Virus record (IMG/VR): IMGVR_UViG_3300029487_000014
Reading direction: 5' to 3' (one strand)
Source of the DNA: a virus
DNA length: 52,634 nucleotides
Made by a program: the position numbers and the translations under genes. Below, piece by piece: positions 8,821 to 39,652 of this stretch; within the stretch, counting starts at the first letter, position 1; the number at the start of each line of letters is the position of its first letter. Under the pieces are notes generated by a model. It was not told where the DNA came from, did not search any database, and saw only the letters and a list, made by a program, of their open reading frames with translations.

Positions 8821-8849
8821 TATTTCTTTATTTGATATTATAGAATTGT

Positions 8850-8932
8850 GGAATAGGCAGGACTCGAACCTGCATCTTGCTCTCGTTGTTTTTAAGTGGT
8901 ACCACGCTGCTCTTCCATTAAGCTACTATCCC
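8850..8932 (-). tRNA. tRNA-like gene 1 (83 nt): canonical acceptor, D and T arms but no canonical anticodon arm
   Basis: RNA sense: GGGATAG TA GCTTAATGGAAGAGC A [34 nt] GCAGGTTCGAGTCCTGC CTATTCC. No 5-bp/7-nt/5-bp arm exists anywhere in the central 34 nt; every window was checked by hand. Confidence 0.6.
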
Positions 8933-8938
8933 AATAGG

Positions 8939-9021
8939 AGTATAGGCGGGACTCGAACCCACGTTTACTTGGTTTCCACAGACGGTTTCCGAAGTAAGTT
9001 TTACCATTAAACTACTATACT
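8939..9021 (-). tRNA. tRNA-like gene 2 (83 nt): canonical acceptor, D and T arms; the central stem TACTT/AAGTA closes a 21-nt loop that holds a GGAAACC direct repeat
   Basis: RNA sense: AGTATAG TA GTTTAATGGTAAAAC T TACTT CGGAAACCGTCTGTGGAAACC AAGTA AAC GTGGGTTCGAGTCCCGC CTATACT. It lies 6 nt from gene 1. Confidence 0.6.
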
Positions 9022-12269: not shown

Positions 12270-12296
12270 TGTTTATATTGTTTCTATTGTTTACCG
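12270..12296. repeat. Three tandem 9-mers: TGTTTATAT TGTTTCTAT TGTTTACCG (iteron-like)
   Basis: Read directly. A homologous array lies at 41441-41467. Confidence 0.8.
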
Positions 12297-12683
12297 CTTT
12301 ATGAAGTATTTTGCACACAGCCATATAATTACTAAGGCTATGGCCGTTATCAGGTATTCACCAATATTAATTTTTATCTTTTGCCATTTAGTAAACTGAG
12401 CTTCTACAGGGTATGCAACTTGAATTGTATCAACTTTTTCTCGCCAGAGAGTATCATGCTTTTCTATGTATTTATACAAGTATTTATATTTACTGAGATA
12501 CACGGTATCGCCTTTGCGTTCTACATAGATTGAATCTCTATGATATATGCTATCAATTTTGGTCTGAGATAAGTAAGTAGTATCTCTTTTCGTTGTTTCC
12601 ACTGGCACATATTGAATTGACTTACAGCTATATAATATAGTGGCTAAAAATATAAGTGTAATTATTCTCGCTAATTCTCGCAT
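12291..12683 (-). CDS. Putative unimolecular spanin (N-terminal lipoprotein signal plus C-terminal transmembrane helix)
   Basis: MRELARIITLIFLATILYSC (lipobox-like LYSC) and the C-terminal YLITAIALVIIWLCAKYFIKR. Last gene of the lysis cassette. Confidence 0.55.
   Translation of the reverse strand: MRELARIITLIFLATILYSCKSIQYVPVETTKRDTTYLSQTKIDSIYHRDSIYVERKGDTVYLSKYKYLYKYIEKHDTLWREKVDTIQVAYPVEAQFTKWQKIKINIGEYLITAIALVIIWLCAKYFIKR
12664..12681 (-). promoter_or_regulatory. Two GCGAGAAT boxes in direct repeat with 10-bp spacing
   Basis: ATTCTCGC at 12664-12671 and 12674-12681, overlapping codons 2-7 of the spanin gene. Confidence 0.5.
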
Positions 12684-12723
12684 AATCTTTGAGTTTTATT
12701 TGTTATTATTCATATTTAATATA

Positions 12724-12767
12724 AAAACCATTCTCGTGTATAAGAAATTATTACGAGAATGGTTTTT
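12724..12767 (-). terminator. Hairpin with 15-bp arms (AAAAACCATTCTCGT / ACGAGAATGGTTTTT) flanked by A and T runs; terminator-like and carries an ACGAGAAT box
   Basis: Perfect inverted repeat with a 14-nt loop, located between the amidase stop and the spanin start. Confidence 0.6.
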
Positions 12768-12774
12768 ATGTGCT

Positions 12775-13188
12775 TCAGAGGTCTTTATACTCGTATTTAG
12801 CATCAAAGCTGGGACACGCCTTAGCTGCAAATTCTCTGTGTCCATGAATAGTAGCATTTGGGTATTTTACCTTTAAGCTTTTCAGCAATTCGAGTAAAGA
12901 TTGCTTTTGAGCCTCAGTGCGCGTATCTTTAGGAGTTTTACCGTCTTTAGCAACACCTCCTACATAGCATACTCCTATAGAGTTCGCATTTTGGCCTGAA
13001 CAGTGTGCTCCAGCTACACTTTCATCTCTGCCTCTGTGAACAGAGCCATCGAGCTCAATCACATAGTGGTAACCAATGTCTTTCCAGTGATTACCATTCA
13101 CATGCCAATCTCGTATGGTCTCAGTTTTAACATCTCGTCCTTCAGGAGTAGCAGAGCAATGGACTATGATTTTATTTATCTTTCTCAT
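12775..13188 (-). CDS. N-acetylmuramoyl-L-alanine amidase endolysin (Amidase_2 / T7-lysozyme-like)
   Basis: IIVHCSATPEG, GYHYVIELDGSVHRGR, AHCSGQNANSIGVCYVGG, IHGHREFAAKACPSF. Confidence 0.9.
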   Translation of the reverse strand: MRKINKIIVHCSATPEGRDVKTETIRDWHVNGNHWKDIGYHYVIELDGSVHRGRDESVAGAHCSGQNANSIGVCYVGGVAKDGKTPKDTRTEAQKQSLLELLKSLKVKYPNATIHGHREFAAKACPSFDAKYEYKDL

Positions 13189-13658
13189 TTCTTTTTATCG
13201 TTTAAGGTGATTATTTTTGTTATTTCATTAAGTATTTCGTGGCCTTGCTCTGCAGTAGCTGCTTGCACAATCTTTTTTACTATATCAGGTACATCTGCAG
13301 CATGAGCTTTTTTACGTTTGCTATTTTCAACCACAGATTTACCCTCAATATATATAACTGCAACAGTACATAGAATTGTGGCAAATGGAATTATATAGAA
13401 TGATAATAAGCTTCCAAGTATATCAAACATAAGAGCAAAAAGCATTAGCCTTACATAATCGCCGATTTTTGTAATTGTTCTACGAAATCCATGCGACATC
13501 AATGCTTGGCCAAGTGCTTTTGCTGTCGTTGTTCCACTCCAGAAGTCTACGATACTGCTTAGTATCATGAAAATCCAGCAGACTAGAATAATGCCAACTC
13601 TAATAACTATGAAAAACATCAGTCCGTCAAAGTTCTTGGCTTCAATCAGTTCTAACAT
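13185..13658 (-). CDS. Holin (Phage_holin_4-like, multi-transmembrane)
   Basis: IVDFWSGTTTAKALGQALMSHGFRRTITKIGDY...IYIEGKSVVENS. Three or more hydrophobic helices. Overlaps the endolysin start. Confidence 0.75.
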   Translation of the reverse strand: MLELIEAKNFDGLMFFIVIRVGIILVCWIFMILSSIVDFWSGTTTAKALGQALMSHGFRRTITKIGDYVRLMLFALMFDILGSLLSFYIIPFATILCTVAVIYIEGKSVVENSKRKKAHAADVPDIVKKIVQAATAEQGHEILNEITKIITLNDKKK

Positions 13659-13659
13659 A

Positions 13660-14202
13660 CTATACGAATTTTTCCCAGTCCAACTTGATTGCTTTTCCGA
13701 TTGCGTCAGCAGTCCATCTGCAGAAAATCATGCCATCATACCCATCCGGGTCATTGGCCACTTTATGAGCATATCTCAAGCATGCGGCTTCATCTTTCAG
13801 AGGGTCTGGATAGAAATCTGCATAAGCCATGTTAGCCACATAGGTAACATCACCTGTTGTCACTTTACCAGGAATGCTCAATCCTAAGCTTTCCATAGAC
13901 TTTTTGACTTGACTTGTAGTCCAAGAATGCTGTTGGCCATTAGCATTTACCATCATTTTACTTACGTGCTCTTGCAGAGCATCTGTAAAGTGATAGCCGT
14001 GCTTTTTGACATACTCAGAATATCCTTTAGCAGACATGAGAGCATTTGCTGTTTGCTCATAAGGCAAATCGAATTTGACCTTATGCTCACCATGAGGAGT
14101 AGCTATTCTGCTTTCTACTACTACGTCTTCTTCATCTTCGTGCTCCTTATCATGGTCGCATGTATAATGCTTTACTATGATACATTTTAATCTGTGTCCC
14201 AT
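13660..14202 (-). CDS. Hypothetical protein
   Basis: 180-aa ORF with a His/Asp/Glu-rich N-terminus. Confidence 0.6.
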   Translation of the reverse strand: MGHRLKCIIVKHYTCDHDKEHEDEEDVVVESRIATPHGEHKVKFDLPYEQTANALMSAKGYSEYVKKHGYHFTDALQEHVSKMMVNANGQQHSWTTSQVKKSMESLGLSIPGKVTTGDVTYVANMAYADFYPDPLKDEAACLRYAHKVANDPDGYDGMIFCRWTADAIGKAIKLDWEKFV

Positions 14203-14207
14203 AACTT

Positions 14208-14702
14208 TTAGCTTTCAAATTTTTTGATGAAATTCTCCATCATTTCCTGCTGCTTTTTCATGAGTTCTTCCATGCCACTAATGGACTTCTCAATCTTGCC
14301 GAAACGCTGTTCTGTTTCTTGCTTTTCCTTATACATAGGATTAAGCTCTGCAAGCAATAAAGGAGCTTTGTCAATGATATTTTGAGCTTTAGAAGCAGAA
14401 GCCAAAACCTGTTCAGCATTTGCCTTTTGAGCTTCAACTTCGCTCGTCAATCCAGATTTTTCTGTTGACAGAACAAGATGCCCGGCATAGGTAACTGAAT
14501 GGCTTTCAGGAATAGCGTAAGTTGCCATTTTTCCATTGGCCTCTATAGTAACATCTACTACCATCTCTGTCTTGCCAGTCTTCTGGTTCATTTCTAATCG
14601 AGGAAACGATACCTGAGTGGCTTTGCCTTGAATAAGGCTAAATTCCTGTGTATCAAGAATGTATACAGGATAATTCTGCTTTATATCTTTGAATAACAAC
14701 AT
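14208..14702 (-). CDS. Hypothetical protein with a coiled-coil C-terminus
   Basis: 164-aa ORF. Confidence 0.6.
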   Translation of the reverse strand: MLLFKDIKQNYPVYILDTQEFSLIQGKATQVSFPRLEMNQKTGKTEMVVDVTIEANGKMATYAIPESHSVTYAGHLVLSTEKSGLTSEVEAQKANAEQVLASASKAQNIIDKAPLLLAELNPMYKEKQETEQRFGKIEKSISGMEELMKKQQEMMENFIKKFES

Positions 14703-14727
14703 ATAGCTTATCTTTTTGAATTGTTAA

Positions 14728-14775
14728 TAAAAAAGAGGGCACTCAGAGAAGTATAAAACTTCCCTAAGTACCCTC
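14728..14775 (-). terminator. Strong rho-independent terminator ending the structural/fibre operon
   Basis: Minus sense: GAGGGTACTTAGGGAAGT-loop-ACTTCTCTGAGTGCCCTC followed by TTTTTT. 18-bp stem including G:U pairs. Confidence 0.8.
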
Positions 14776-14783
14776 AATTTCAA

Positions 14784-15203
14784 TTAGGCTGCTGGTTCAG
14801 CTGGAATAGAAACGCTCAATGAGCTATTGATAGCATAGCAGTTGGATTTTCCGCATACTATCTTAATAAGTCCTTGAGTCATTCCAAGCTGGTTGATAGT
14901 AACAGATGTAGGAAGTGTCGTTCTACCTTGGAATGCAACCACAAACCGTTCATTGATTGCCTGTGTCTCAGCTTGGCATTTGCAAGCATTCGGAGTAGTA
15001 ATCGTGATTGTTGCTACAATAGGCACGAATACGGTAGTTCCGTTAAGAACAGGCGTTTCATTCCTATAAGTAACAGTCGCAAACGGTTGATTGGTAGAAG
15101 TTGCACAGACACAACGACACAATTTCTCCTTAAATGTGGCCAAGAACGAAACTTGATTTGCCACAGGAGCAGCGGCTAAGCCTACTGGCGATAATGTAAC
15201 CAT
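14784..15203 (-). CDS. Hypothetical Cys-containing beta-rich protein (GC-rich island)
   Basis: 139 aa with CRCVC, CKC and VCGKSNC motifs. Last gene before the terminator. Confidence 0.6.
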   Translation of the reverse strand: MVTLSPVGLAAAPVANQVSFLATFKEKLCRCVCATSTNQPFATVTYRNETPVLNGTTVFVPIVATITITTPNACKCQAETQAINERFVVAFQGRTTLPTSVTINQLGMTQGLIKIVCGKSNCYAINSSLSVSIPAEPAA

Positions 15204-15229
15204 AATCTTTACAGTTTAATGGTTAAACA

Positions 15230-16117
15230 TTACTGGCCACAGCCGCATCCGCAGCTATTACCGCCACAGCCACAATTGCCAAGCCTGTTGAAACGCTCGT
15301 TAATCAGGCTGTTCTGGCGCTCCTGAGAAAGCTCGAATTTAAGGTCCTGAATTTTCAGAGCCTGTTCGTCCTTCCAGTGGTTGTTCAGAGTGTCGATGAT
15401 ACGCTGAGTGTTGTCCTGACCAGCGCGAAGAATATCGCACTTATCCTGCTGAGCTTGGAAAGCAGTAGACGAGAAGCCCTGCGTAATCGCAAAGCCAAGG
15501 TCACGCTGACCATTGCGGAGTTCGGCAGTGTCTTTACAATTCTGGAGGAACAGGTCACCGCGGAAATCAGCAATCTGGCGCTGAGTCTGGCAGCAGCAGT
15601 TCTGCAGAGCCTGGATAACATTGCAGTCACCGAGGTTAACGGCATTGATAACGCGCTCAGCAGAGAAGCCAACCTGACCAGCAACTTGTTGGATAGCAGC
15701 CTGAACATCGCAGCAGCACTTCTGAAGAGTGTTGAAATCGATGTTAAGCGTCTGAGCCAGCTGGCTAAGAGCAAAGCCGTTGCCCTGGATGGCAGACTTA
15801 ATGCAATCAGCATTCTGGTTGTCCTGCAACTGAGTACGGATAGCATTGAGCTGAGCCTGAGTTTCGATACCCTGAGTAGCGGTACCTGCTCCTGCACCAT
15901 CCCCGCCAAAGCCGAAGCCTCCATTGCGGAACAGAGCCAGGAACATGAGGTAGGCAAACGGATTGTTCATCCAGTTGTTCATACCTCCACCCATCATGGC
16001 GGCCATCGGGCCCCAATCATCTCTACGGTTATTACCGTTTGCCAAGATGGCAGCTGCGAGCGCGTTGTCGTTGTTATCGCGGTCGCAACAATAGATTTTT
16101 TCTACAGTTTCTCCCAT
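15230..16117 (-). CDS. Hypothetical Cys-cluster / Gly-rich protein (GC-rich island)
   Basis: 295 aa. Contains YCCDRD, GGGMNNWMNNPFAYLMFLALFRNGGFGFGGDGAGAG, QKCCCDVQ, QNCCCQTQ and the C-terminal GNCGCGGNSCGCGCGQ. Confidence 0.65.
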   Translation of the reverse strand: MGETVEKIYCCDRDNNDNALAAAILANGNNRRDDWGPMAAMMGGGMNNWMNNPFAYLMFLALFRNGGFGFGGDGAGAGTATQGIETQAQLNAIRTQLQDNQNADCIKSAIQGNGFALSQLAQTLNIDFNTLQKCCCDVQAAIQQVAGQVGFSAERVINAVNLGDCNVIQALQNCCCQTQRQIADFRGDLFLQNCKDTAELRNGQRDLGFAITQGFSSTAFQAQQDKCDILRAGQDNTQRIIDTLNNHWKDEQALKIQDLKFELSQERQNSLINERFNRLGNCGCGGNSCGCGCGQ

Positions 16118-16176
16118 AATTTTGAAGAATTTAGAAATCTGTTAAACAATAAAGTTAATTATATACAGACACCTCT

Positions 16177-16512
16177 CTAGAAAAAACTTTTAGCCAGACG
16201 TTGCATTATATACGTAGATTGATAAAAGATTGCAAATATCATCCTCATCATATTCGCAGTCATACCCGTAAAGAGGAAGCAGATTATCACCACGTAAAGG
16301 ACCAGTTCGGCCAGGGCGTTCTTGAACTTGCCGAAAGAAAAGTTCTCGCAGCACGTGAAACTCACCCCGTCCGCCTTCATACCCGCATAGATGTTGAAGG
16401 CAAAGGCCAACACCAATGCCAGCAAGAATCCCTTCGTCGGGGTGTAATACGCCAGCACCGGACTGATGGCTGATGCCGACACCATGCGCAAATGTTCCCA
16501 ATCCGTTCTCAT
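16177..16512 (-). CDS. Membrane protein, possible second holin-like protein
   Basis: 111 aa with FLLALVLAFAFNIYAGMKADG...LAELVLYVVIICFLFTG. Loosely resembles the core of holin 13185..13658. Confidence 0.5.
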   Translation of the reverse strand: MRTDWEHLRMVSASAISPVLAYYTPTKGFLLALVLAFAFNIYAGMKADGVSFTCCENFSFGKFKNALAELVLYVVIICFLFTGMTANMMRMIFAIFYQSTYIMQRLAKSFF

Positions 16513-16529
16513 ATACTATTCCTTTTCCA

Positions 16530-17138
16530 TCATTCCGCAGGCGGGGTATAAACCCCAGCCGTAAACCTATAATTATAAAGTTTGCAGGATGTCCATTCAT
16601 CACCGGTATAATTCAGTACGGCAGAATGTAATTCAATCCTGTCCCCTCTGTAATGCTTCGTCCACGTAAGGTATACGATACTGGAGGAAACCTTTACCGA
16701 AATGGGATACAGCTCCGTCTTCTTGTAAATGCTCGTCCCGTACCATCCGATGACGGGGCGACTCGCGAGCACCGCTGCGAACAGGTCGGAAGGCTTGCCC
16801 ACCCTACTCAGCACAATGTCCACGCTCATACCGTCCGTCAACGCCGTATTCACGTAATAAGGCCCCGCCACGTACTCTTTCCCGTTAAACACGATGCTCT
16901 CCGCGTCCGTGGGGAAGAATAACGCCTGCGGGTTCGCACCCGTCAGCGACAAAGCCTGCGCCCGCGTCTTGCTCGCATACACCTTTAGTTTTTGCCCTAC
17001 TGCCGTGCTTGCCAATGGAATAACTCCGGAGGGAATATCGGCAGTATTACCGTTCACTTGCAAGCTACCTTCGTCCGGTAAATTCTCTCGTACATCGTCA
17101 ATGATGATTTCTGAATCTATTTCAAAATCCTTTCTCAT
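16530..17138 (-). CDS. Tail fibre-related protein (N-terminus paralogous to 17142..18572)
   Basis: GQKLKVYASKTRAQALSLTGANPQALFFPTDAESIVFNGKEY aligns with GQKLRVAVTKTSAQGKAAQSATPNLMSFSTDENSVWFNGKKY. Confidence 0.6.
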   Translation of the reverse strand: MRKDFEIDSEIIIDDVRENLPDEGSLQVNGNTADIPSGVIPLASTAVGQKLKVYASKTRAQALSLTGANPQALFFPTDAESIVFNGKEYVAGPYYVNTALTDGMSVDIVLSRVGKPSDLFAAVLASRPVIGWYGTSIYKKTELYPISVKVSSSIVYLTWTKHYRGDRIELHSAVLNYTGDEWTSCKLYNYRFTAGVYTPPAE

Positions 17139-17141
17139 AGT

Positions 17142-18572
17142 TTATTCGATTGTAATTCCTGCTGAATCTGAAGGTTTAACAATTCTTACACTAAACTGCG
17201 CATTATCCCAGTTGTCTCCACTACTTGCAGGGACACATTTTGCAATGACAATCCAGTCATTATTACCTGGATGAAGATATTTTACTATTACATTCCCAGA
17301 ATCAATTATACACACTGCCGATTTTTGAGATTGTATATTATTATGACCAGTTACTAATATTAGTTTTCCTGCATCAATGGCATTTCTAAAAGTAGACGGT
17401 GCCCCTAAAGCTGTTTTAAGTTGTTCTTGTGTAGGATTACTGTTTAGAGCGGTAAGTTCTCCTATGTTATAATATGAAATTACATCGGCTTTCTTTGCAT
17501 ACGTGTTGCTCGCATCCGTTTTCGATAGCTTTTCATCTTGCAATTTCTTACCCATCGCAGCCGAAAGGGGTTTGTTCGTTTCACTGGAAGTAAGATTATT
17601 GACTATTTCATCCTTAGCAACTACTACCCCAAGCTGTTCCCAGATTTCTTCAAAACTTGTATCCGTATCAGCTTTCTTCGCATAAGTGTTGCTTGCATCA
17701 CTCTTGGTAAGGTATGGAGTCAAGTCCACCGTACCCCCCAACGCATCCCAGTTGTCGTCGTTATGGTCGCTTGACGAAGTCGCTGTCACACAAACCACGT
17801 TTGTCCCTGCTGGGTATTTCTTGCCACCAAGCGTGAACTCATTCGTAACATTCCATACATCACCCACTTTCGCATCCGTCAAGGACAACACGTCGGATAT
17901 GTTTGTCTTAGTACCTTTCACCTTATACGGGGAACCAAGCCCGTTGATTCTGTCATTCAACGCTTTACCCTGTGCCGCTGATAAGGCTTTTGAAGTGTCA
18001 GTAGTGGTAAGGTTATTCACTACGTCTGTTTTCGCTAACTTTTCATCCTGCAATTTCTTACCCATTGCAGCCGAAAGAGCCTTGTTAGTCTCAGTAGAGG
18101 TCAGAGTATTCCTGATATCATCAACTATTAAATGAGATATAGTGGTCAACCCTGTCACTTTATTACTAGATACAGTAATAGTAAGTTTCTTTATTGACCT
18201 TGAATCTGAGCTTGGTACATAGAGTTGGAAAGTGTCATCCCCATCTTCATATTTTACTATCGTATTTCCAGAAATGGTATCTATGAAAAGTACACCTTTA
18301 TGGGCTAAATCATAAAGTTCAGAAGATTTACTGACATTCAAAGCAGACAATACCTGTTCTGCTGTTGAGTTAGTATTCAGGCTTGAAACATTATTAAATT
18401 TATGTACCCCATACTTCTTCCCATTAAACCACACACTGTTTTCATCGGTACTAAAACTCATTAGGTTTGGGGTAGCACTCTGTGCTGCCTTACCTTGTGC
18501 GGAAGTTTTTGTTACCGCTACTCTTAATTTTTGTCCGTTTGCTGCCATAATTTTATTTTTTAAGTTATTCAA
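17142..18572 (-). CDS. Tail fibre protein with internal repeats
   Basis: Repeated LTS(T/S)ETNK(A/P)LSAAMGKKLQDEKL(A/S)KTD and ASNTYAKKAD units. 476 aa. Confidence 0.75.
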   Translation of the reverse strand: MNNLKNKIMAANGQKLRVAVTKTSAQGKAAQSATPNLMSFSTDENSVWFNGKKYGVHKFNNVSSLNTNSTAEQVLSALNVSKSSELYDLAHKGVLFIDTISGNTIVKYEDGDDTFQLYVPSSDSRSIKKLTITVSSNKVTGLTTISHLIVDDIRNTLTSTETNKALSAAMGKKLQDEKLAKTDVVNNLTTTDTSKALSAAQGKALNDRINGLGSPYKVKGTKTNISDVLSLTDAKVGDVWNVTNEFTLGGKKYPAGTNVVCVTATSSSDHNDDNWDALGGTVDLTPYLTKSDASNTYAKKADTDTSFEEIWEQLGVVVAKDEIVNNLTSSETNKPLSAAMGKKLQDEKLSKTDASNTYAKKADVISYYNIGELTALNSNPTQEQLKTALGAPSTFRNAIDAGKLILVTGHNNIQSQKSAVCIIDSGNVIVKYLHPGNNDWIVIAKCVPASSGDNWDNAQFSVRIVKPSDSAGITIE

Positions 18573-20046
18573 TAATTATACTTTTTCCACCACCTCCGCC
18601 TTGTGTTTGGTGACGGAATATGATATAGTTGTTTCCAGATTGTTTGATTTCCCAACCTTCATAAGTTTCACTCATCCCATAGGCAAATGAAATGTAATCA
18701 TCCGAGCTGCCCGTCACGACATACGTCCTTTCATGGGCATCATCGCGCACGACCATGATTTCTGCTCCCCTTATCTTCGCCCACACTTCTTCCGTCAGCC
18801 CGAAAGCATCCAAATCCCCCTGCGTGCGCCCGCTGCCGATTTTCTTCTGAAGGACACCGAAGTCGAAAGCCGCGTATTCCGACGCCGACAAAGCCTCCTC
18901 CAGCACATCCTGCAATGGCCTGTCCGCCTCCTCGTCGAGCACACCGTCATAGCCGCCCACGCCCTTCACGTAAACCCGACCGTCATCCATCACCTCCAAG
19001 GCGTTGCGCCTGTCACTCTCCGACGTGCCTATCCCTATGCTGTGGCGCGTACCCGTATTGCTTACGTTATAGCACCCTTCGGCATGTTCACAGTCGTTTT
19101 CAACTATGGTACGAAGACCCTCGGCATGCCCGTAGTGCCCCTCCACGTCAGTACCTTTGCCCTCCGCGTGGCTCGCGTCACCGTTTGCGCTGCAACCTTG
19201 GCCTTCCGCGTGCGCGTAATCACCGGAAACGGTGTTATTCTCATAATCGTTGAAAATCTCGCCGCCGGTCACGCCATCCGCCGACCGGCCCACGCCGCCA
19301 CCGAGTCTTTCCCAAACGCCCCACGCGCCCTTCGCACACTTGCGCCAAAGCACGGCGTATTCCTCGCCCGAACGCGTCAACCTTTTTCCCGAATCGGCCG
19401 GCTTGAAGTATCCCCGCACCGACTGAAGCCATGTGTCCGTGTTATACCCTACCGGGATATTCTCCACCGTGAAAGGAGTACCCGTGATATCACCCCTGAA
19501 ATATCCCGCCTTCGCAATGCCCTCCGCGCCGGAAGTATGAAGCCCGTCCAGCAACGTGTTCATTTCTTCTTCGCTCGTCATGCTCCCCAACCATTTGTGC
19601 GGGTCGTGAAGCGCGTCGCTGTCCTCTGAAGTACCCTGAAGACGTTTTATAAGTTTAGTTTGCAAATTGATTGAAAGAGTAGTAATAGCTCGCTGGCTAA
19701 TAGGAAACTGTACAGAGGTACCTAACTCTTGTAAGCACTCATATAATTTAATGCTTTTCCAGCTATTATTCATATCATTGTATAATATACATATGCCATA
19801 ATAGCGTATTGTAATACTACTAAAATTGCTATATACGCCAGGTTTATTAGCAAAATAAAATACAGGACCATCAGGCACACCGGGATTAGTAGCAGGAGTA
19901 GCAATTCCAGCAAATGTAGAATTTTCTCCTACAGAACTTACTATATTATTAAGTACATTCTGGAGAAGTTGTCCTGTTATTTCTTGATTTCCATTAGTCT
20001 TTATGATATTAGCGATTGCTGCTTTTAAAGTACTCCAATTTGCCAT
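18565..20046 (-). CDS. Tail fibre / receptor-binding protein; chimeric, with an AT-rich N-terminus and a GC-rich distal domain
   Basis: Repeated (A/S/G/E)HAEG motifs: GDYAHAEGQGCSANGDASHAEGKGTDVEGHYGHAEGLRTIVENDCEHAEG. 493 aa. Confidence 0.75.
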   Translation of the reverse strand: MANWSTLKAAIANIIKTNGNQEITGQLLQNVLNNIVSSVGENSTFAGIATPATNPGVPDGPVFYFANKPGVYSNFSSITIRYYGICILYNDMNNSWKSIKLYECLQELGTSVQFPISQRAITTLSINLQTKLIKRLQGTSEDSDALHDPHKWLGSMTSEEEMNTLLDGLHTSGAEGIAKAGYFRGDITGTPFTVENIPVGYNTDTWLQSVRGYFKPADSGKRLTRSGEEYAVLWRKCAKGAWGVWERLGGGVGRSADGVTGGEIFNDYENNTVSGDYAHAEGQGCSANGDASHAEGKGTDVEGHYGHAEGLRTIVENDCEHAEGCYNVSNTGTRHSIGIGTSESDRRNALEVMDDGRVYVKGVGGYDGVLDEEADRPLQDVLEEALSASEYAAFDFGVLQKKIGSGRTQGDLDAFGLTEEVWAKIRGAEIMVVRDDAHERTYVVTGSSDDYISFAYGMSETYEGWEIKQSGNNYIIFRHQTQGGGGGKSIIIE

Positions 20047-20049
20047 ATA

Positions 20050-20904
20050 TTATTCTGTTTTAAAATCATTATTAAAATCATCATTAAAATCACCGCCTAG
20101 TAATTCAGGCTCATAGCCTCCGATGTTGGCAATCACAGTATCTGTCTCAAATTCACATTCTACAAACGCTAAATCTCCTTGGTCTTCCCATTCAGGCTCC
20201 ATGCTAAATGTAGTCAAATCATAGGTTTGCAATTTACTTGTAATTCGTTTGCTTTCACATAGTCTTACAATTCTAAGTGCATCACATAGATATTCAGGAG
20301 CTACGAATGTAAACTTATAAATCTTTTTGCTTACTTGGCTCTCAATAAATGTATAGCCCATCCGCTCAGTAGCTTCTTCTTCAAAGTCATATTCAGGTTT
20401 GCCAATTTGTGTATTTAAGTAGCACCTGAATTTGAAATTGTCAGAAAAATCTACTACGCCATTTTTAAGCTCAAAGTTATATGAATTGTAATACTCAAGA
20501 AGCAGATAATCATCTACTTTATTAGTTACAGTAAATACGTCAGAGTATATAGTTCCTAAACCTGATATTGAAATCGCTAAATAATATAAACCTTCATGCT
20601 TTATTTCAACTATAGGAAGAGTACCAGGATATTTAAGAAGCTTGAAGCCAGTATATGGCTTGATAGTCAGGCCATTTTCTTTCATGCTTGTTGTTATAGC
20701 GGTGTAAGTTCCTGTATTGAAATTATATAATCTCACCCAGTTTATAGATGTTCCATTAGCAAGAACTACTTGAAAAGGCAATAACATATTCTTATAGGTT
20801 ATTAGCGGATAAACTTGACCAAAAGCATAATCTTTACGATGATTTTGCAATACAAGATTATCGTAAAAAGGCAATGGTGATATGTTATTATTTACTAACT
20901 TCAT
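20050..20904 (-). CDS. Tail / baseplate-associated protein (call from position only)
   Basis: 284-aa ORF between the large tail protein and the fibres. Confidence 0.5.
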   Translation of the reverse strand: MKLVNNNISPLPFYDNLVLQNHRKDYAFGQVYPLITYKNMLLPFQVVLANGTSINWVRLYNFNTGTYTAITTSMKENGLTIKPYTGFKLLKYPGTLPIVEIKHEGLYYLAISISGLGTIYSDVFTVTNKVDDYLLLEYYNSYNFELKNGVVDFSDNFKFRCYLNTQIGKPEYDFEEEATERMGYTFIESQVSKKIYKFTFVAPEYLCDALRIVRLCESKRITSKLQTYDLTTFSMEPEWEDQGDLAFVECEFETDTVIANIGGYEPELLGGDFNDDFNNDFKTE

Positions 20905-31041: not shown

Positions 31042-32166
31042 TTATCCTCCAACTCCTGCAGAAGCCTCCTTAGTGTTAACCGGATTGTCTTCAGAGTTGA
31101 CAACAACCACAGGCTTAGCATAAACTGCATCTTCACTTGATACGTTGAATGCCAGAATAGGACTTGCCAAAGTGCTAGGTGCACTGTTATATGCAGTCAA
31201 GAAGGCCACGTCAACAGCAAAACCATAGTGCTCTTTGCGCGTACGAGTCATATCAGCAGTAGCGGCTCCTGCAATAGTATTGTAATCACCTACAGAATCG
31301 TAGAAATATGTACCAACAGGCATGTTCAGCAAAGGCAAAGTAGCAATACCCCACTCATGGCCGTCACCGGAAACAGTTCCAAGCAAGCAGTCACGCTCGA
31401 AGCGGGTCAACATTCCAAGAGAGCCGGCATTTACAGCGTAACCCTGAGCATACTTACCTTCAGCAGCTGCGATATTGTTCGTCAAGTGAACAATTTTTGT
31501 GCCAAATTCATTCTGCTTGTTTACGTCATTGTAAAGACCGTGCTGCTGCAACTTACGCATGATAGACTCAACACCAGGGTCACCTACAAGATGCAACTGG
31601 CCATAGAAGTCATTTGCTCCCATCATAACTTCAAGGTCACCAAATACGTTTTCACGCTCAGTCCACTTTGCATTGATGGCATTAGCAGACCAGTCATACA
31701 GCAGCGGATTTTTCAAAACCTGTGTTTTGTTGGCTGCGAGAGCAGCAAGAGCAGCTTCATCAAGCTTTTTCGCAAAAGCATAGATGTACTTCATCATTTT
31801 GGTTTCAAAGTCCTTCTGAATGCCAATTTCGTTATTCATGTACATTGCTGGAGCAATAGTAAATCCCCATGCATAAGTGGCAAACGTGATTTGAACCATT
31901 TTAGAAGTGTTTTCACTGTCGGCAATTGTCAAAGTGCGGGTACTACCGATAGTAATATCAGCATCATAGTCAATTACTGGAGTTTCCAGTGTGTTACCGA
32001 TGGAGGTCCTTGCTTTTTGCTTCAGTTCCTCAGTGAGGATGCCAGTAGGGTCTTCAGATTGCACCATAAAAGCATTCAATGCGCCGTACCTACTGGGGCG
32101 ATACTCAAACTTATCAAGGTTAGAGTTCGCACGAATGTTCTGGATACGTGTTAAAACTAGACTCAT
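31042..32166 (-). CDS. Probable major capsid protein
   Basis: 374 aa. Follows a scaffold-like gene and is followed by a strong terminator. No motif-level proof. Confidence 0.55.
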   Translation of the reverse strand: MSLVLTRIQNIRANSNLDKFEYRPSRYGALNAFMVQSEDPTGILTEELKQKARTSIGNTLETPVIDYDADITIGSTRTLTIADSENTSKMVQITFATYAWGFTIAPAMYMNNEIGIQKDFETKMMKYIYAFAKKLDEAALAALAANKTQVLKNPLLYDWSANAINAKWTERENVFGDLEVMMGANDFYGQLHLVGDPGVESIMRKLQQHGLYNDVNKQNEFGTKIVHLTNNIAAAEGKYAQGYAVNAGSLGMLTRFERDCLLGTVSGDGHEWGIATLPLLNMPVGTYFYDSVGDYNTIAGAATADMTRTRKEHYGFAVDVAFLTAYNSAPSTLASPILAFNVSSEDAVYAKPVVVVNSEDNPVNTKEASAGVGG

Positions 32167-36928: not shown

Positions 36929-39652
36929 CTAGTTTCTCAATAATATTTTCTTCCTTCCAGCTTTTCTACTATGCATTTCTACTACTCCAGTTAATGCATC
37001 TGGTGCATCATCATGAGCAGCCCTTCGCTTATTATCTTTACGATAAGTTGTAATAGCATTATAGAATTCACGCCATTTTTTATCCCAATTTTCTGGAAAC
37101 GCTACATCTGAGTTAACAAGAGCTGAATTTGAAAAAATACGAGCAGCTTTATTTTTTGTCTGCGTAAAAGTATTTATGGCTGTTTTGAAATTATGCAAAG
37201 TAGCTCTTGTAATGCGCTTTACATTTCTAGCAAACTGCCTACCACCATTATTGGACTCTATCAGACATTCTGTTATACTATTTTCTGTGAGCATTTTAGC
37301 CAACATTACTTCAGTTTTTTCCATGGGCAGTTGTGTATATAGCACATCAATTACATATAGCATTTCTGGAGTATTTATAAAGCAAATTGCACATAAATAA
37401 TCAGAGCCAGTATCAGCTGTATCAACGTAACACCATCTTTGATTAGCTTTAGAGCCTGATGGCAATTCTATATTTTGATATGTTCTAAACTCGTGATACA
37501 TAAGGCCCTCAGTAGGAATTGGATTTTGCATATACTGCGTCTCAAATACTACCGGGTTAATCTCTCGTAGTTTATATAGCTCCTCAAGATTGTGCTTCAT
37601 TGGCCAAAGAGCATATTCTTCTCCTGTCTCAGGGTCTGTTTGTATAACTGGAAGTGATAAAACAGTCCATGTATCTGGCTCTATTTCTTGTAAATAACCA
37701 CAGAGGTCATGCTCGTGTAATCTTTGCATTATAATAATGATAGGTGTCCTGCGCGAGTTAACACGATTACGTATTGTATTTTCGAAACGCTGATTTATGC
37801 GCTCTCGTATAAGGTCGGATGCTGCATCGTCGGCTTTCAGAGGGTCATCAATCATAATTGCGCCTTGAAATATATTAGTTTTAGCATCTATCATTTTAAG
37901 CATTTCATTTGTATGGTCATCAAATACAAATATATCATTGCCTCCATCCATTTTATCTATTTCTTCATCTACTGCTCCAGCACCAAAGCCTGTAACCTGA
38001 CCTTGTGTTGACACTGCATAGAGTTCTCCGCCTGCTTTAGTTTTCCATCTCTTAGCTGACCCTTTCTCAGATGCAAGAGCTGAATTAGGAAAGAGCGTTT
38101 TATATAATTCTTCGCTCATTATATTACGCACAGTATCTGAATTATCATTTACAAGTATATCTGAATAAGATAGATGCAGAAATCTGCATCGCGGGTTTAA
38201 GGCGAAGCACCATGATATAAACGACTTAATAACTAATTCTGTATTGTGCGATACGAGCCCATTGGCTATAAAATTTTTATCGCCAGATACTTCAATATGA
38301 ACTAATTCATGCTTTCCTACTTCTTCTATACTAACAATTTCATCAGGATAGAAATCTTCAGCCCAATATCTCGTAAGGTTATCAGGAAAAATTTCCACTA
38401 ATTCTCTAAATGTATCTTCTGACATATTCCTATTTGGCCCAACTGATTTATACCCTAAATCAAAGTGTATCATTTTGTAAAGGCCTTCATTCTTTATTAT
38501 AGAATACGGGTATGTGCATGTACGTTCTATTTTAGAAGGCTGTAAAATGTATTCTTTTGCTTTATCTGCTTTTCCATAAAAATTCAAATGTGGATATAAT
38601 TTTTGAGAATATCTTCTTGATATTGCAACATTCCATATACCAGCTTTTTCATTTTCATAAAATCCTAAAGTTGATGGAATTTTCATAGTAGATAACAGAT
38701 ATTGAATATCCTCAGCAAGTCCTTTGTTTGCTAGGCCTATAGACAACTGACCATTCTTTTTTATAGTACCATCTGTTGCTATCATCATTCCTAAAAACAC
38801 ATATTTTTGTCGCATAGAAGTACTAAATATTCCTAATGGGATTCTTTTAGTATAAGAGCTATTTCCAACTAATTTATGCTTTATTAAAATGTTATTTATT
38901 ACGCCATTAGTTCCGCCTAATATGGTATATTGACAATCTGCGGTACAAGAATAATGTTTGGCCTCACCTCCGAGTTCATTAACAGCCTTTATAACAGCAT
39001 TTACCGCTAATTTATCTATGTTAGTAAATCCTAATTTACCAGATTTTGTACAACATCCGTCAAACAGCATCATTGATATTAGTATAATCTCCGCGTCTGA
39101 TAATGTTTCGACGCCGTCTAACTCTTTTTTTAATGCAAATATCCTATCTCCAATTTTAAGCCTATTAGATTTTACATACCCGAACGGTGTTCTCCAAGGA
39201 TGGTCAATACTGCATACAACTGACCGACCTGACCTCATAGTAATTTCATAGCAGTCTTTATATGCCGGCTCAGTAGCAATAACACTATTAACAACCGCTC
39301 TACCATCTTTGAATGATAGCACTTTATCTCCTGGCAGTATATCAGCTATTTTTTTTCGCTCACCTGTAGCAAGCGTAATAAGGGTATCTTTACTAACGCA
39401 TTTCCCGTATCTGGGAGCTATATTAATAATAAGACGTGTAATTTTACCATCCACGACATCTTGCAAGGCTTCAAATATCTTTTTGTGGTGCTTGGCAACG
39501 ATAAATGAGCGCTTATATTGAGCCTTAAACATTAGTTTAGTATACTTTTCAAATGACGTAAGAGCTTCAAGACGTAACATTTCTACAGGATTTACGGCTC
39601 CGGGCTTTGTTGCATCTAATGCTATTTCTTGCATTTCTTTAAGTGACTTCAT
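36929..39652 (-). CDS. terL: Terminase large subunit interrupted by an intein
   Basis: Extein motifs: the Walker A APRYGK|T is split by the intein, Walker B is IMIDDPLK, and the nuclease motifs are CYVDTADTGSDY, ESNNGG and AAHDDAPDAL. Confidence 0.9.
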   Translation of the reverse strand: MKSLKEMQEIALDATKPGAVNPVEMLRLEALTSFEKYTKLMFKAQYKRSFIVAKHHKKIFEALQDVVDGKITRLIINIAPRYGKCVSKDTLITLATGERKKIADILPGDKVLSFKDGRAVVNSVIATEPAYKDCYEITMRSGRSVVCSIDHPWRTPFGYVKSNRLKIGDRIFALKKELDGVETLSDAEIILISMMLFDGCCTKSGKLGFTNIDKLAVNAVIKAVNELGGEAKHYSCTADCQYTILGGTNGVINNILIKHKLVGNSSYTKRIPLGIFSTSMRQKYVFLGMMIATDGTIKKNGQLSIGLANKGLAEDIQYLLSTMKIPSTLGFYENEKAGIWNVAISRRYSQKLYPHLNFYGKADKAKEYILQPSKIERTCTYPYSIIKNEGLYKMIHFDLGYKSVGPNRNMSEDTFRELVEIFPDNLTRYWAEDFYPDEIVSIEEVGKHELVHIEVSGDKNFIANGLVSHNTELVIKSFISWCFALNPRCRFLHLSYSDILVNDNSDTVRNIMSEELYKTLFPNSALASEKGSAKRWKTKAGGELYAVSTQGQVTGFGAGAVDEEIDKMDGGNDIFVFDDHTNEMLKMIDAKTNIFQGAIMIDDPLKADDAASDLIRERINQRFENTIRNRVNSRRTPIIIIMQRLHEHDLCGYLQEIEPDTWTVLSLPVIQTDPETGEEYALWPMKHNLEELYKLREINPVVFETQYMQNPIPTEGLMYHEFRTYQNIELPSGSKANQRWCYVDTADTGSDYLCAICFINTPEMLYVIDVLYTQLPMEKTEVMLAKMLTENSITECLIESNNGGRQFARNVKRITRATLHNFKTAINTFTQTKNKAARIFSNSALVNSDVAFPENWDKKWREFYNAITTYRKDNKRRAAHDDAPDALTGVVEMHSRKAGRKKILLRN
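38243..39400 (-). mobile_element. Intein (386 aa) with a LAGLIDADG homing-endonuclease domain, inserted in the TerL P-loop
   Basis: It starts at Cys85 (GK/CVSKDTLITL) and ends in VSHN/T. Block B is SIDH. The LAGLIDADG motifs are ILISMMLFDGCC and FLGMMIATDGTI. The TGC codon is at 39398-39400 and the AAT (Asn) codon at 38243-38245. Confidence 0.9.

Follow-up and report, generated by a model that had tools for sequence, protein, structure and literature searches.

The head fibres of crAss001 consist of gp21, a trimer, and gp29, a dimer, which are anchored in hexon pockets by their N-terminal 38–58 residues (PMC10172136). Both proteins are present in hundreds of copies per virion, and the virion contains intersubunit disulfides (PMC10172136). 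In the crAss001 gene map, the gp29 gene is located between the genes for the holin and the endolysin. The reovirus sigma-1 and phi29 gp8.5 fibres feature a capsid-inserted N-terminal anchor, an alpha-helical coiled-coil stalk and a distal tip. The lambda Rz/Rz1 two-component spanins, whose genes adjoin the holin and endolysin genes, consist of an anchored helical protein with functionally important cysteines and a small partner that pairs with its C-terminus.

The locus described here lies in a window of 52,634 nucleotides, which is the whole stretch of viral DNA that was analysed (IMG/VR record IMGVR_UViG_3300029487_000014). Two Cys-rich proteins encoded in it, C295 (295 aa) and C139 (139 aa), form part of a self-contained module, which thousands of gut Bacteroidales phages carry as an accessory. 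The module is tentatively assigned as a putative accessory fibre, abundant and late, which likely decorates the capsid or virion and features a Cys-stapled helical stalk and a thiol-linked beta cap. Among the unannotated late genes of human-gut Bacteroidales phages, the C295-module families rank with the most common, and the labels "spike glycoprotein" and "viral fiber" found in public records rest on a weak coiled-coil match.

Genes of the locus

All of the genes at this locus are located on the minus strand. A preliminary description made from the sequence alone listed four ORFs, and the ORF translations bear out all four at their coordinates as well as every Cys motif quoted from them. C295, the putative stalk protein, is encoded at 15230..16117 and is followed by C139, the all-beta Cys-bearing putative cap protein, at 14784..15203. 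The other two ORFs encode a 111-aa membrane protein (16177..16512) and a 202-aa fibre-related protein (16530..17138). The Cys-rich ORFs are real genes under purifying selection, with dN/dS values of 0.10 for C295 and 0.08 for C139 that are similar to those of their neighbours. The terminator reported after C139 was confirmed as an intrinsic terminator (14728..14775) with an 18-bp stem that includes 8 GC pairs (stem 14775..14735) and a T run after it, and it closes the C295-C139 transcription unit. The terminator does not hold as the end of the cassette, as the functional unit continues past it to p164 (164 aa, 14208..14702, phrog_28898), a near-universal partner of C295, and C139 is optional. 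The next gene encodes a DUF7841 protein (180 aa, 13660..14202; Pfam PF25223, E 1.2e-25). The lysis cassette (12291..13658) is complete without the Cys-rich genes and consists of a holin (157 aa, 13185..13658; Pfam Phage_holin_4_1), an Amidase_2 endolysin (12775..13188; Pfam Amidase_2) and a unimolecular spanin (130 aa, 12291..12683) with an N-terminal lipobox (ILYSC) and a C-terminal transmembrane segment.

The 202-aa protein is indeed fibre-related and shares 37% identity with the N-terminal part of a 476-aa fibre over 87 aa (E 2e-11). The gene was seen in only one relative, L011, and the protein is a member of a variable, horizontally exchanged fibre cluster that lies outside the module. Homology of the N-termini of the 202-aa and 476-aa proteins to the crAss001 head fibre gp21 was also considered and is not significant. 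The 111-aa ORF aligns only to positions 10–90 of the 167-position phrog_15037, whose function is unannotated, and its 3′ end is AT-rich. These two features make it look like a truncated remnant, and in the few relatives that have it only fragments are found. This putative remnant probably arrived with the variable fibre segment and is likewise outside the module. The term "holin-like" used for the 111-aa protein has to be dropped, as no holin family was found in Pfam and the protein does not align to the 157-aa Phage_holin_4_1 protein. A full-length 175-aa relative has no Pfam family.

Base composition and codon usage

The segment had been viewed as a single GC-rich island that was horizontally acquired. 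The raised GC content is real, with values of 45–53% in 500-nt windows at 15001–17000 compared to 37% for the whole window, and it has two unrelated causes instead of a single acquisition. Additional GC-rich patches are found beyond the proposed bounds of the island, at 18500–19500. C139 is not part of the GC-rich segment, with a GC content of 0.43 and a GC3 of 0.34 (genome median GC3 0.30).

C295 features the strongest expression-type codon bias of the window, on par with the major capsid gene (31042..32166). The CAG fraction is 0.91 in C295, 0.73 in the capsid gene and 0.38 in the background, and the corresponding values are 0, 0 and 0.51 for ATA, 0.86, 0.83 and 0.33 for CGY, and 0.010, 0.011 and about 0.1 for rare codons. 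C295 ranks 1–5 among local genes for this bias at 21 diverse loci. The codon usage of the holin, amidase, spanin and fibre genes of the window shows no such bias. The codon bias points to high expression of C295 and is indirect evidence of abundance.

The fibre C-terminus and the genes for the 202-aa and 111-aa proteins combine a foreign signature with patchy presence, and their NCG value is 0.40–0.50 (0.50 in the 202-aa gene and 0.46 in the 111-aa gene, both with NCG-rich foreign codon usage). C295 and C139 do not fit a horizontal island, as the bias of C295 is of the expression type, C139 has none, and both genes are syntenic. The imported, variable look is limited to the 202-aa, 111-aa and fibre segments. 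A conserved antisense gene (15377..16180, plus strand, 267 aa) was considered as the cause of the high GC3 and was rejected as a by-product, a codon-aligned antisense ORF. This ORF owes its open frame solely to the lack of TTA, CTA and TCA codons, and the number of antisense stops, which is 1–7 in close alleles and up to 20 in distant ones, follows GC3.

The C295 protein

C295 features a conserved N-terminus, in which an EKIYCxDR motif precedes a hydrophobic W.NNPF.YL stretch, then a Gly-rich linker, a helical region of ~200 aa with a near-invariant CCC at residues 174–176, and a C-terminal (CG)n tail. Residues 54–273 match PHROG 16490 (E 3.5e-12), and the vir215 homologue carries the same phrog_16490 annotation. 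The preliminary description placed neither Cys-rich protein in a characterised family, and this holds, as Pfam, NCBIfam and PADLOC were empty and PHROG 16490, which carries no functional annotation, is the sole family match. PDB sequence and fold searches with C295 and C139 revealed nothing convincing, Foldseek with the low-confidence C295 model gave no meaningful match and no fibre match, and the Cys-rich proteins had no match in defence and anti-defence libraries. The AlphaFold2 model of C295 is helical over residues 83–279 with low confidence (pLDDT 63.7, pTM 0.30). The five helical repeats described for this region are weak: the two CCC segments are alike (z = 4.4), one pair has a z of 3.5, and the others are at 2.0 or lower. 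Variation in C295 peaks in the distal half and the tail, and the N-terminus and proximal stalk are the most conserved.

The hydrophobic segment differs between subfamilies. In the C295 of the window, the hydrophobic core spans about 11 residues from about residue 53 and is followed by Arg, with a mean hydropathy of 1.2 over 17 aa. The segment past residue 50 is transmembrane-like in cr1_1, cr116_1, Dulem virus 40, C3_41T2LP and vir215, and some subfamilies have a Met-rich version of it that contains charged residues. A check of C295 against the features of an i-spanin revealed a stalk that is predicted to be helical and a hydrophobic segment that is transmembrane-like in some subfamilies only. 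Cys10 is conserved and is located across the hydrophobic segment from the other conserved cysteines. The number of cysteines is even in 55% of the C295 family, and this absence of an even-number bias does not favour simple intramolecular disulfide pairing. Intramolecular disulfide pairs in C295 were rejected on this basis and because no pairwise co-variation of Cys columns was found outside the clusters.

The cr7_1 homologue of C295 features six in-frame recoded stops. Recoded in-frame stops are typical of late genes in such phages (PMC10136315), which suggests that C295 is a late gene. Reverse transcriptases are located upstream of the module in cr7_1 and vir215. C295 was rejected as a DGR target, as the neighbouring tail protein is the likelier target and the dN/dS of C295 is low.

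The C139 protein and its coupling to the C295 tail

Searches with C139 found 911 and 1273 homologues, in which C29, C33 and C117 are invariant and C74 and C76 are near-invariant. The AlphaFold2 model of C139 is confident (pLDDT 88.9, pTM 0.79) and features an all-beta fold with eight strands, for which two fold searches gave no significant match. The N-terminus (MVTLSPVGLAAAPVANQ...) is highly conserved and is modelled within the beta fold; it has no basic n-region, no lipobox and no signal peptide.

C139 is present if and only if the tail of C295 is Cys-rich, and it is absent when the tail is poly-Thr. A comparison of tail type with C139 presence gave 0 mismatches among 89 distinct C295 cores, with about 4 joint transitions. 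In cr1_1 and C3_41T2LP, the Cys-tailed C295 homologues are followed by a second type of small Cys-bearing beta protein. Extensive thiol chemistry had been suggested for these proteins, and the perfect co-variation of the Cys-rich tail with C139 makes it plausible. The free replacement of the Cys tail by poly-Thr in the absence of C139 points to a tip with a structural role and not to an essential metal site. The Cys-rich proteins matched no metal-binding family, and CxC and CCC motifs alone were seen. The strict coupling of the Cys tail and the cap gene is a directly testable hypothesis regarding both protein–protein contact and chemistry, and cultured carriers exist.

Module order, partners and distribution

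The module consists of C295, an optional C139, an intrinsic terminator, p164 and an optional DUF7841 gene. The same gene order recurs in the 51-kb lineage, in crAss-like phages, in S. copri prophages and elsewhere, and the order and the terminator are conserved across unrelated phage backbones. Nearly all lineages have a strong hairpin after C295 or C139 and ahead of p164, and the hairpin sequences are unrelated. p164 follows C295 in 34 of the 39 genome loci and in most viral loci. Judged from its sequence, p164 features a beta-rich N-terminal part and a helical or coiled-coil C-terminal part, and no PDB relative was found. The DUF7841 protein is often encoded after p164 and also occurs without C295. 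Its assignment as a lysozyme was rejected, as the Pfam hint is weak (E 0.084) and the profile has no PDB relative. Literature searches on DUF7841, phrog_16490 and C3_41T2LP returned nothing. C139, p164 and the DUF7841 protein have no obvious N-terminal signal sequence, which suggests that they share a compartment with the C295 tail and fits assembly in the cytoplasm.

The C295 family comprises 3822 matches in 566 clusters at 50% identity. The exact C295 sequence was found on 88 contigs, and its 90% cluster has 1261 members. Carriers include crAss-like phages, Segatella copri prophages and a Bacteroides uniformis phage. Of the host labels, those of S. copri isolates alone were trusted, and the Firmicutes and other non-Bacteroidales labels come from MAG bins and were treated as binning artefacts. 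Those 51-kb relatives in which the locus extends over C295 and C139 have both genes in synteny, and C295 is 80–100% identical while the upstream fibres (464–1314 aa) are replaced and share 45–95% identity. The cassette is absent from the collinear cultured phage BF503P2, which shares the capsid and most other virion genes at 39–78% identity. This absence agrees with the accessory character proposed for the cassette.

The module is carried by phages of very different particle types. Lysis genes are found within about 3 kb of it, on either side, in most independent contexts, and in two genomes its neighbours are genes for replication or recombination. Fibre or tail genes lie immediately upstream of the module in the window, the S. 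copri prophages, Dulem virus 42, cr7_1 and vir215, and several genomes have no fibre gene near it. The S. copri prophage also encodes a separate unimolecular-spanin-type protein after the amidase.

Possible functions of the module

In the accessory fibre proposed here, C295 would accumulate to high levels late in infection, be anchored through the 60–65 conserved residues at its N-terminus, and oligomerise to an elongated stalk that is stapled at the CCC layer. The (CG)n tail of C295 would be captured by the CxCxC beta-strand of C139 via disulfides or a shared metal, and the poly-Thr-tailed versions of C295 would need no cap. p164, with its beta domain and helix, may be a further partner or an adaptor. 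The module would be a dispensable, portable fibre of the particle surface that is stabilised by thiol cross-links once outside the cell, and would be neither a lysis protein nor host-directed cargo. A high-copy, late and dispensable product is indicated indirectly by the capsid-like codon bias, the recoded stops in cr7_1 and the absence from BF503P2. The conserved module order and terminator, the co-variation of tail and cap gene, the absence of signal sequences from the partners, the location of the variation in the distal half and tail of C295, and the precedent of the crAss001 head fibres count for a fibre. Counting against it are the lack of resemblance, by inspection, to gp21 and gp29, the presence of the module in very different particles, which an autonomous envelope device would explain more easily than a structural part, the adjacency to lysis genes in most contexts, the replication and recombination neighbours in two genomes, and a C295 model that is of low confidence (pTM 0.30). 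An abundant thiol-cross-linked surface fibre would bear on the survival of gut phages in transit, on adhesion to mucus or cells, and on recognition.

The hydrophobic segment of C295 also counts against this assignment. A membrane anchor is favoured over a soluble virion protein by the conservation of this segment ~50 residues from the N-terminus and by its transmembrane-like character in several subfamilies. It is possible, if somewhat doubtful, that the module is an inner-membrane-anchored envelope device linked to lysis, in which C295 inserts via the hydrophobic segment and the Cys-stapled stalk projects. Such a device could conceivably act with C139, p164 and the DUF7841 protein at lysis and be spanin-, antiholin- or class III holin-like, or be a membrane-stabilising or release factor. 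The proximity of lysis genes and the portability of the module across phage morphotypes are consistent with this; however, the hydrophobic core is short in the window, the segment is Met-rich and charged in some subfamilies, and the conserved Cys10 is on the other side of it from the remaining conserved cysteines. The gene order mirrors that of separated spanin genes, in which an anchored helical protein precedes a small partner that pairs with its C-terminus, but C139 has no lipobox or signal peptide and so is not an o-spanin. C295 and C139 were rejected as a two-component spanin for this reason and because a unimolecular spanin is already present; with the holin and amidase, it completes the lysis set. 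The codon bias of C295 is also capsid-like, unlike that of the lysis genes, and in the window the strong terminator separates the C295 unit from the lysis operon. A weak profile match to coronavirus spike S2, in the part with the fusion peptide and HR1 (E about 1e-4), was counted for an envelope device, but this match is restricted to a Gln/Asn/Ala/Leu-rich helical stretch and is probably compositional. That the module is an undescribed envelope device is decidedly unlikely. Such a device would be an abundant inner-membrane stalk that controls the release of progeny from obligately anaerobic Bacteroidales and whose thiol or metal tip comprises the C139 cap together with the CCC layer and (CG)n tail of C295. 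It is just as doubtful that this tip senses or exploits redox or oxygen, or fuses or bridges membranes in a class I manner, beside the holin-endolysin-spanin set. An envelope or lysis device would be a new component of lysis in Bacteroidota.

It is unlikely that the genes are a horizontally acquired moron cassette, host-directed or regulatory and unconnected to the particle or lysis, with Cys clusters that bind metal or iron-sulfur or sense redox. The accessory status relative to BF503P2, the many CxC and CCC motifs, the absence of an even-number Cys bias and the non-structural neighbours in two genomes fit such a cassette, as does the absence of signal peptides from all of the partners, which would place them in the reducing cytoplasm. 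However, the composition of C295 reflects expression rather than foreign DNA, the synteny extends across the lineage and many other backbones with order and terminator conserved, poly-Thr replaces the Cys-rich tail where C139 is absent, and the searches yielded no known metal-binding family. Expression of morons usually does not depend on the late programme, whereas C295 is late. It is highly improbable that the module serves the upstream fibres as a chaperone of tail-fibre assembly or as a receptor-binding accessory. The location directly downstream of fibre or tail genes is in line with such a role, but C295 is under purifying selection and keeps its identity while those fibres are swapped, several genomes have no fibre gene nearby, and no fibre-chaperone family was matched. 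The expression-type bias is also unsuited to a chaperone and is absent from the fibre genes themselves. A receptor-binding accessory, which had been suggested from the gene position, is not supported, as C295 remains 80–100% identical despite the fibre swaps and shows no diversifying selection.

Comparison with known systems

The C295 module shares its proximity to holin and endolysin genes with the lambda Rz/Rz1 spanins, and would resemble them further if C295 is an anchored helical protein with functionally important cysteines that is joined at its C-terminus by a small partner. Unlike Rz1, C139 has no lipoprotein signal and is optional, and the hydrophobic segment of C295 does not start right at the N-terminus and, in the protein of the window, is weak. 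In addition, a unimolecular spanin is already present, and the codon bias of C295 implies expression far above that of the lysis genes.

The C295 family profile matches residues about 830–960 of the coronavirus spike S2 protein with profile positions 20–145 (E 1e-4 to 1e-3, 22–24 bits). Both proteins feature a hydrophobic Gly-rich stretch followed by a long Gln/Asn-rich helix. Unlike class I fusion proteins, C295 has no signal peptide, receptor-binding part, HR2 or C-terminal anchor, and Foldseek found no match. C295 was rejected as a class I fusion glycoprotein, as the score is marginal and covers a compositionally biased helix, further elements are absent, and there is no fold match. The labels "spike protein" and "glycoprotein" in crAss-like records likely stem from this S2 profile match.

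The crAss001 head fibres and the C295 module share Bacteroides hosts and a phage group. C295 is predicted to resemble gp21 and gp29 in its short N-terminal anchor, its flexible projecting fibre and its high copy number, and the gp29 gene is embedded in the lysis region just as the C295 module is near lysis genes. The intersubunit disulfides that stabilise the crAss001 particle are a parallel to the thiol cross-links proposed for C295. However, gp21 and gp29 are beta-rich proteins of 97 and 122 aa, whereas C295 is helical and has 295 aa, and by inspection the translations of these small beta-rich proteins show no resemblance to C295. C295 also differs from gp21 and gp29 in having a hydrophobic segment and a CCC layer, and its putative cap is a separate protein.

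The labels "outer capsid protein" and "viral fiber" likely stem from a resemblance of the type seen with reovirus sigma-1 and phi29 gp8.5. The C295 module has no detectable homology to these fibres and differs from them in its tip, which would be a separate protein on the Cys-rich tail.

Organization of the locus

The locus lies on the minus strand, in a late operon that runs from two fibre genes of 493 aa (20046..18565) and 476 aa (18572..17142) through a 202-aa protein (17138..16530) and a 111-aa membrane ORF (16512..16177) to C295, a 295-aa Cys-rich protein (16117..15230), and C139, a 139-aa Cys-bearing protein (15203..14784). C139 is followed by a terminator with an 18-bp stem (14775..14735), after which come p164 (164 aa, phrog_28898, 14702..14208), a DUF7841 protein (14202..13660), a Phage_holin_4_1 holin (13658..13185), an Amidase_2 endolysin (13188..12775), and a 130-aa protein (12683..12291) with the architecture of a unimolecular spanin, featuring an N-terminal lipoprotein signal with the lipobox ILYSC and a C-terminal transmembrane segment. 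Proteins similar to the latter follow the endolysin in S. copri prophages and at other loci. A 267-aa plus-strand ORF (15377-16180), codon-aligned antisense to C295, is a by-product that stays open because TTA, CTA, and TCA are missing from the codons of C295; in close alleles it is interrupted, and relatives do not conserve it. The ORFs, motifs, and terminator of the preliminary description largely stand, all of the motifs it quoted being found in translations of the window; the unity and the boundaries that it gave the cassette do not.

GC content and codon usage

The window has a GC content of 37% and a median GC3 of 0.30. Values for C295 are 0.52 and 0.58 and for C139 0.43 and 0.34, and GC3 reaches 0.66 in the 111-aa ORF, 0.60 in the 202-aa gene, and 0.64–0.76 in the C-terminal two-thirds of the 493-aa fibre. 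The segment 14784-17138 had been taken for a single imported GC-rich island, a view contradicted by the codon tables, which resolve the raised GC into two separate causes. C295 carries a high-expression signature resembling that of the major capsid gene (31042..32166). CAG makes up 0.91 of Gln codons in C295 and 0.73 in the capsid gene (background 0.38), ATA for Ile is unused (background 0.51), CGT and CGC account for 0.86 of Arg codons, GCT and ACT are favoured, TTA and CTA are absent, and rare codons amount to 1.0% in C295, 1.1% in the capsid gene, and 8–16% in most genes. This expression-type bias is the strongest among the 46 genes examined, and at 21 diverse loci the C295 homologue ranks 1–5 among local genes; C295 is thus probably highly expressed. 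The 202-aa gene, the 111-aa ORF, and the fibre C-terminal segments are GCG/ACG/GGG-rich, with an NCG fraction of 0.40–0.50 vs 0.03–0.16, which by its composition is a foreign mutational signature, and these same genes vary or disappear in close relatives. The island is therefore a juxtaposition of imported fibre pieces and a probably highly expressed gene.

The strongest GC patch of the window, up to 59% GC, is the C-terminal part of the 493-aa fibre (18565-19500), which lies outside the proposed island and features NCG-rich foreign codon usage and YadA-like HAEG repeats. Within 13000-20100, megablast matches GenBank phages only in the N-terminal part of the 476-aa fibre (18073-18547). This stretch is 97.5% identical to the crAss-like phage cr85_1 (98 kb), suggesting that unrelated phages recently exchanged an N-terminal fibre module. 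An expression-type bias as extreme as in C295 and the capsid gene is also seen in a 375-aa gene on the plus strand (44897-46024), with 0.5% rare codons and CAG at 1.00; Pfam gives no family for it, and its homologue in phage BF503P2 is 46% identical.

Features of C295 and C139

Across diverse members, C295 keeps an N-terminal EKIYCxDR motif and a hydrophobic stretch (W.NNPF.YL) that leads into a Gly/Phe-rich linker, and its conserved helical motifs are GQVGFSAERVINAVN, NTQRIIDTLNNHW, and LQDLKFELSQ. Residues 174–176 form a near-invariant CCC (91–97%), and other frequent Cys are located at residue 10, the alignment column of residue 126, 136, and 227. Among diverse members the Cys count has no even-number bias and there is no pairwise co-variation. 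The AlphaFold2 model features helices over 83–279, one of them spanning 165–279, with low confidence, as expected for an oligomeric fibre; a fold search with it yields no match. C139 is modelled as a confident all-beta protein with long strands (pLDDT 88.9, pTM 0.79) that has no significant match in PDB or BFVD. Its conserved Cys are a CxCxC on one strand, a CxC in a loop, C117, and C122.

Distribution and gene context

C295 has 3822 relatives in a set of 5.8 billion proteins (566 clusters at 50% identity), every one named 'hypothetical', and its sole family match is PHROG 16490, function unknown. C139 has about 900–1300 relatives and no family was found for it. The Cys-rich proteins, described at the outset as lacking a recognisable family, are truly uncharacterized, and they are very widespread. 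C295 homologues occur in many crAss-like phages, where they are labelled 'spike protein/glycoprotein' or 'outer capsid protein/viral fiber', in Dulem viruses, in the cultured Bacteroides uniformis phage C3_41T2LP, in prophages of complete Segatella copri genomes, and in viruses with Methanomassiliicoccales as predicted host. Such labels are probably explained by a marginal match (E about 1e-4) of the C295 family profile to the region of coronavirus S2 comprising the fusion peptide and HR1, a match which is confined to a Gln/Asn/Ala/Leu-rich helical stretch and is probably compositional. In Caudoviricetes sp. vir215 (locus L091, 5878-6759) and vir335, whose archaeal host (Methanomassiliicoccales) is taken from the records alone, the homologues have two CCC motifs and a clear transmembrane-like segment. 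In vir215 and in the crAss-like phage cr7_1, a tail protein and a DGR-like cassette with a reverse transcriptase precede the homologue. The cr7_1 homologue (locus L001, 5788-6591) has six in-frame stops where relatives have Gln, consistent with stop-codon recoding, a typical feature of the late genes of these phages (PMC10136315). The dN/dS values of 0.10 for C295 and 0.08 for C139 indicate purifying selection, similar to the holin and amidase genes.

A survey of 80 viral and 39 genome loci revealed that C295 belongs to an autonomous, conserved, accessory module. Its constant partner is p164 (34 of 39 genome loci), often followed by DUF7841, and C139 lies between C295 and p164 only in a subset of loci. 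The cassette as previously bounded thus left out a core partner beyond the terminator and took in an optional gene. The Cys tail is strictly coupled with the cap gene: C139 is present exactly where C295 has a Cys/Gly/Asn-rich tail and absent where the tail is poly-Thr (e.g., ...AALKTTTTTTTT). All 89 distinct C295 cores follow this rule with 0 mismatches, and on a neighbour-joining tree the two features change together about four times. In cr1_1 and C3_41T2LP the Cys-tailed homologue is followed by a different small Cys-bearing beta protein whose end is also AAAPAA-like. The terminator is conserved: in nearly every lineage p164 is preceded by a strong hairpin, in most cases carrying a U run, that sits immediately downstream of C295 or C139. 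The hairpin sequences of different lineages are unrelated. In most contexts the module has tail/fibre genes or lysis genes, or both, as neighbours, and the arrangement differs: S. copri prophages have fibre, C295, p164, DUF7841, holin, endolysin, and spanin; another group has holin, amidase, spanin, C295, terminator, and p164; and in cr1_1 the module lies between holin and endolysin. It is sometimes found amid genes for replication or recombination. New points are the core module of C295 and p164, the coupling of tail and cap gene, the conserved terminator, and the capsid-like expression signature.

Comparison with phage BF503P2

The window and BF503P2, a cultured phage of Bacteroides fragilis (53.6 kb), are collinear, so the host of the window is a Bacteroidales bacterium. 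Amino acid identity is 39–78% for the capsid, most of the remaining virion genes, and the replication genes, all in conserved order. The portal is unmatched, probably since only the first 50 kb of the BF503P2 record entered the comparison. Within these 50 kb there is no counterpart of the two fibres, the 202-aa gene, the 111-aa ORF, C295, C139, p164, the amidase, or the spanin; by this sequence comparison the Cys-rich cassette counts as an accessory element for particles of this type. The BF503P2 slot between the fibre gene and DUF7841 (locus L131, 16743-19238) holds seven unrelated small genes, so the slot appears to be a general accessory-gene site; one of them encodes a 99-aa protein with a CPGDCSSC motif and a helical region.

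Elsewhere in the window, the 907-aa large terminase (36929-39652, minus strand) contains an intein bearing a homing-endonuclease domain of the LAGLIDADG type (Pfam Intein_splicing, LAGLIDADG_3, and Terminase_6C). Rfam reports two tandem minus-strand tRNA genes of ~84 nt each (8849-8932 and 8938-9021; 47.7 and 44 bits), which ARAGORN misses by default and reports only with introns or lower thresholds allowed, showing an insertion of ~14 nt beside the anticodon.

Proposed function

The reading tentatively favoured is that the module forms an accessory surface fibre of the particle. C295 would be abundant and oligomeric and form an elongated helical stalk, with the conserved N-terminal 60–65 residues as its anchor and the CCC layer as its staple. 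If the (CG)n tail forms a beta-strand, all of its Cys would lie on one face, and a Cys-lined strand of C139 may capture it via disulfides or a shared metal. Signal peptides are not evident in C139, p164, or DUF7841, so the C295 tail must meet them in the cytoplasm, where particles assemble. A surface fibre would account for a codon bias like that of the capsid gene, for BF503P2 doing without the cassette, for the faster evolution of the distal half of C295, and for the nearness to lysis genes.

The main rival, an inner-membrane-anchored envelope or lysis accessory, is rather doubtful. In several C295 subfamilies the hydrophobic segment reads as a convincing transmembrane helix, the module moves among very different phages, and the two-gene logic is reminiscent of separated spanins; however, the window already has a full lysis set, no lipoprotein signal is present in C139, this C295 has a weak hydrophobic core, and its expression signature differs from that of the lysis genes. 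Imported metal-binding cargo, as proposed in the preliminary description, is unlikely, with foreign codon usage found only in the fibre pieces, the 111-aa ORF, and the 202-aa gene. A role as chaperone of the fibres or as a receptor accessory is highly improbable.

For the surface-fibre reading, the best precedent is the head fibres gp21 and gp29 of crAss001 (PMC10172136), to which C295 has no homology when the translations are compared by inspection. The first 38–58 residues of gp21 and gp29 are held in hexon pockets, the proteins are present in hundreds of copies, and the virion features intersubunit disulfides (PMC10172136). In the crAss001 gene map, the gp29 gene is located between holin and endolysin.
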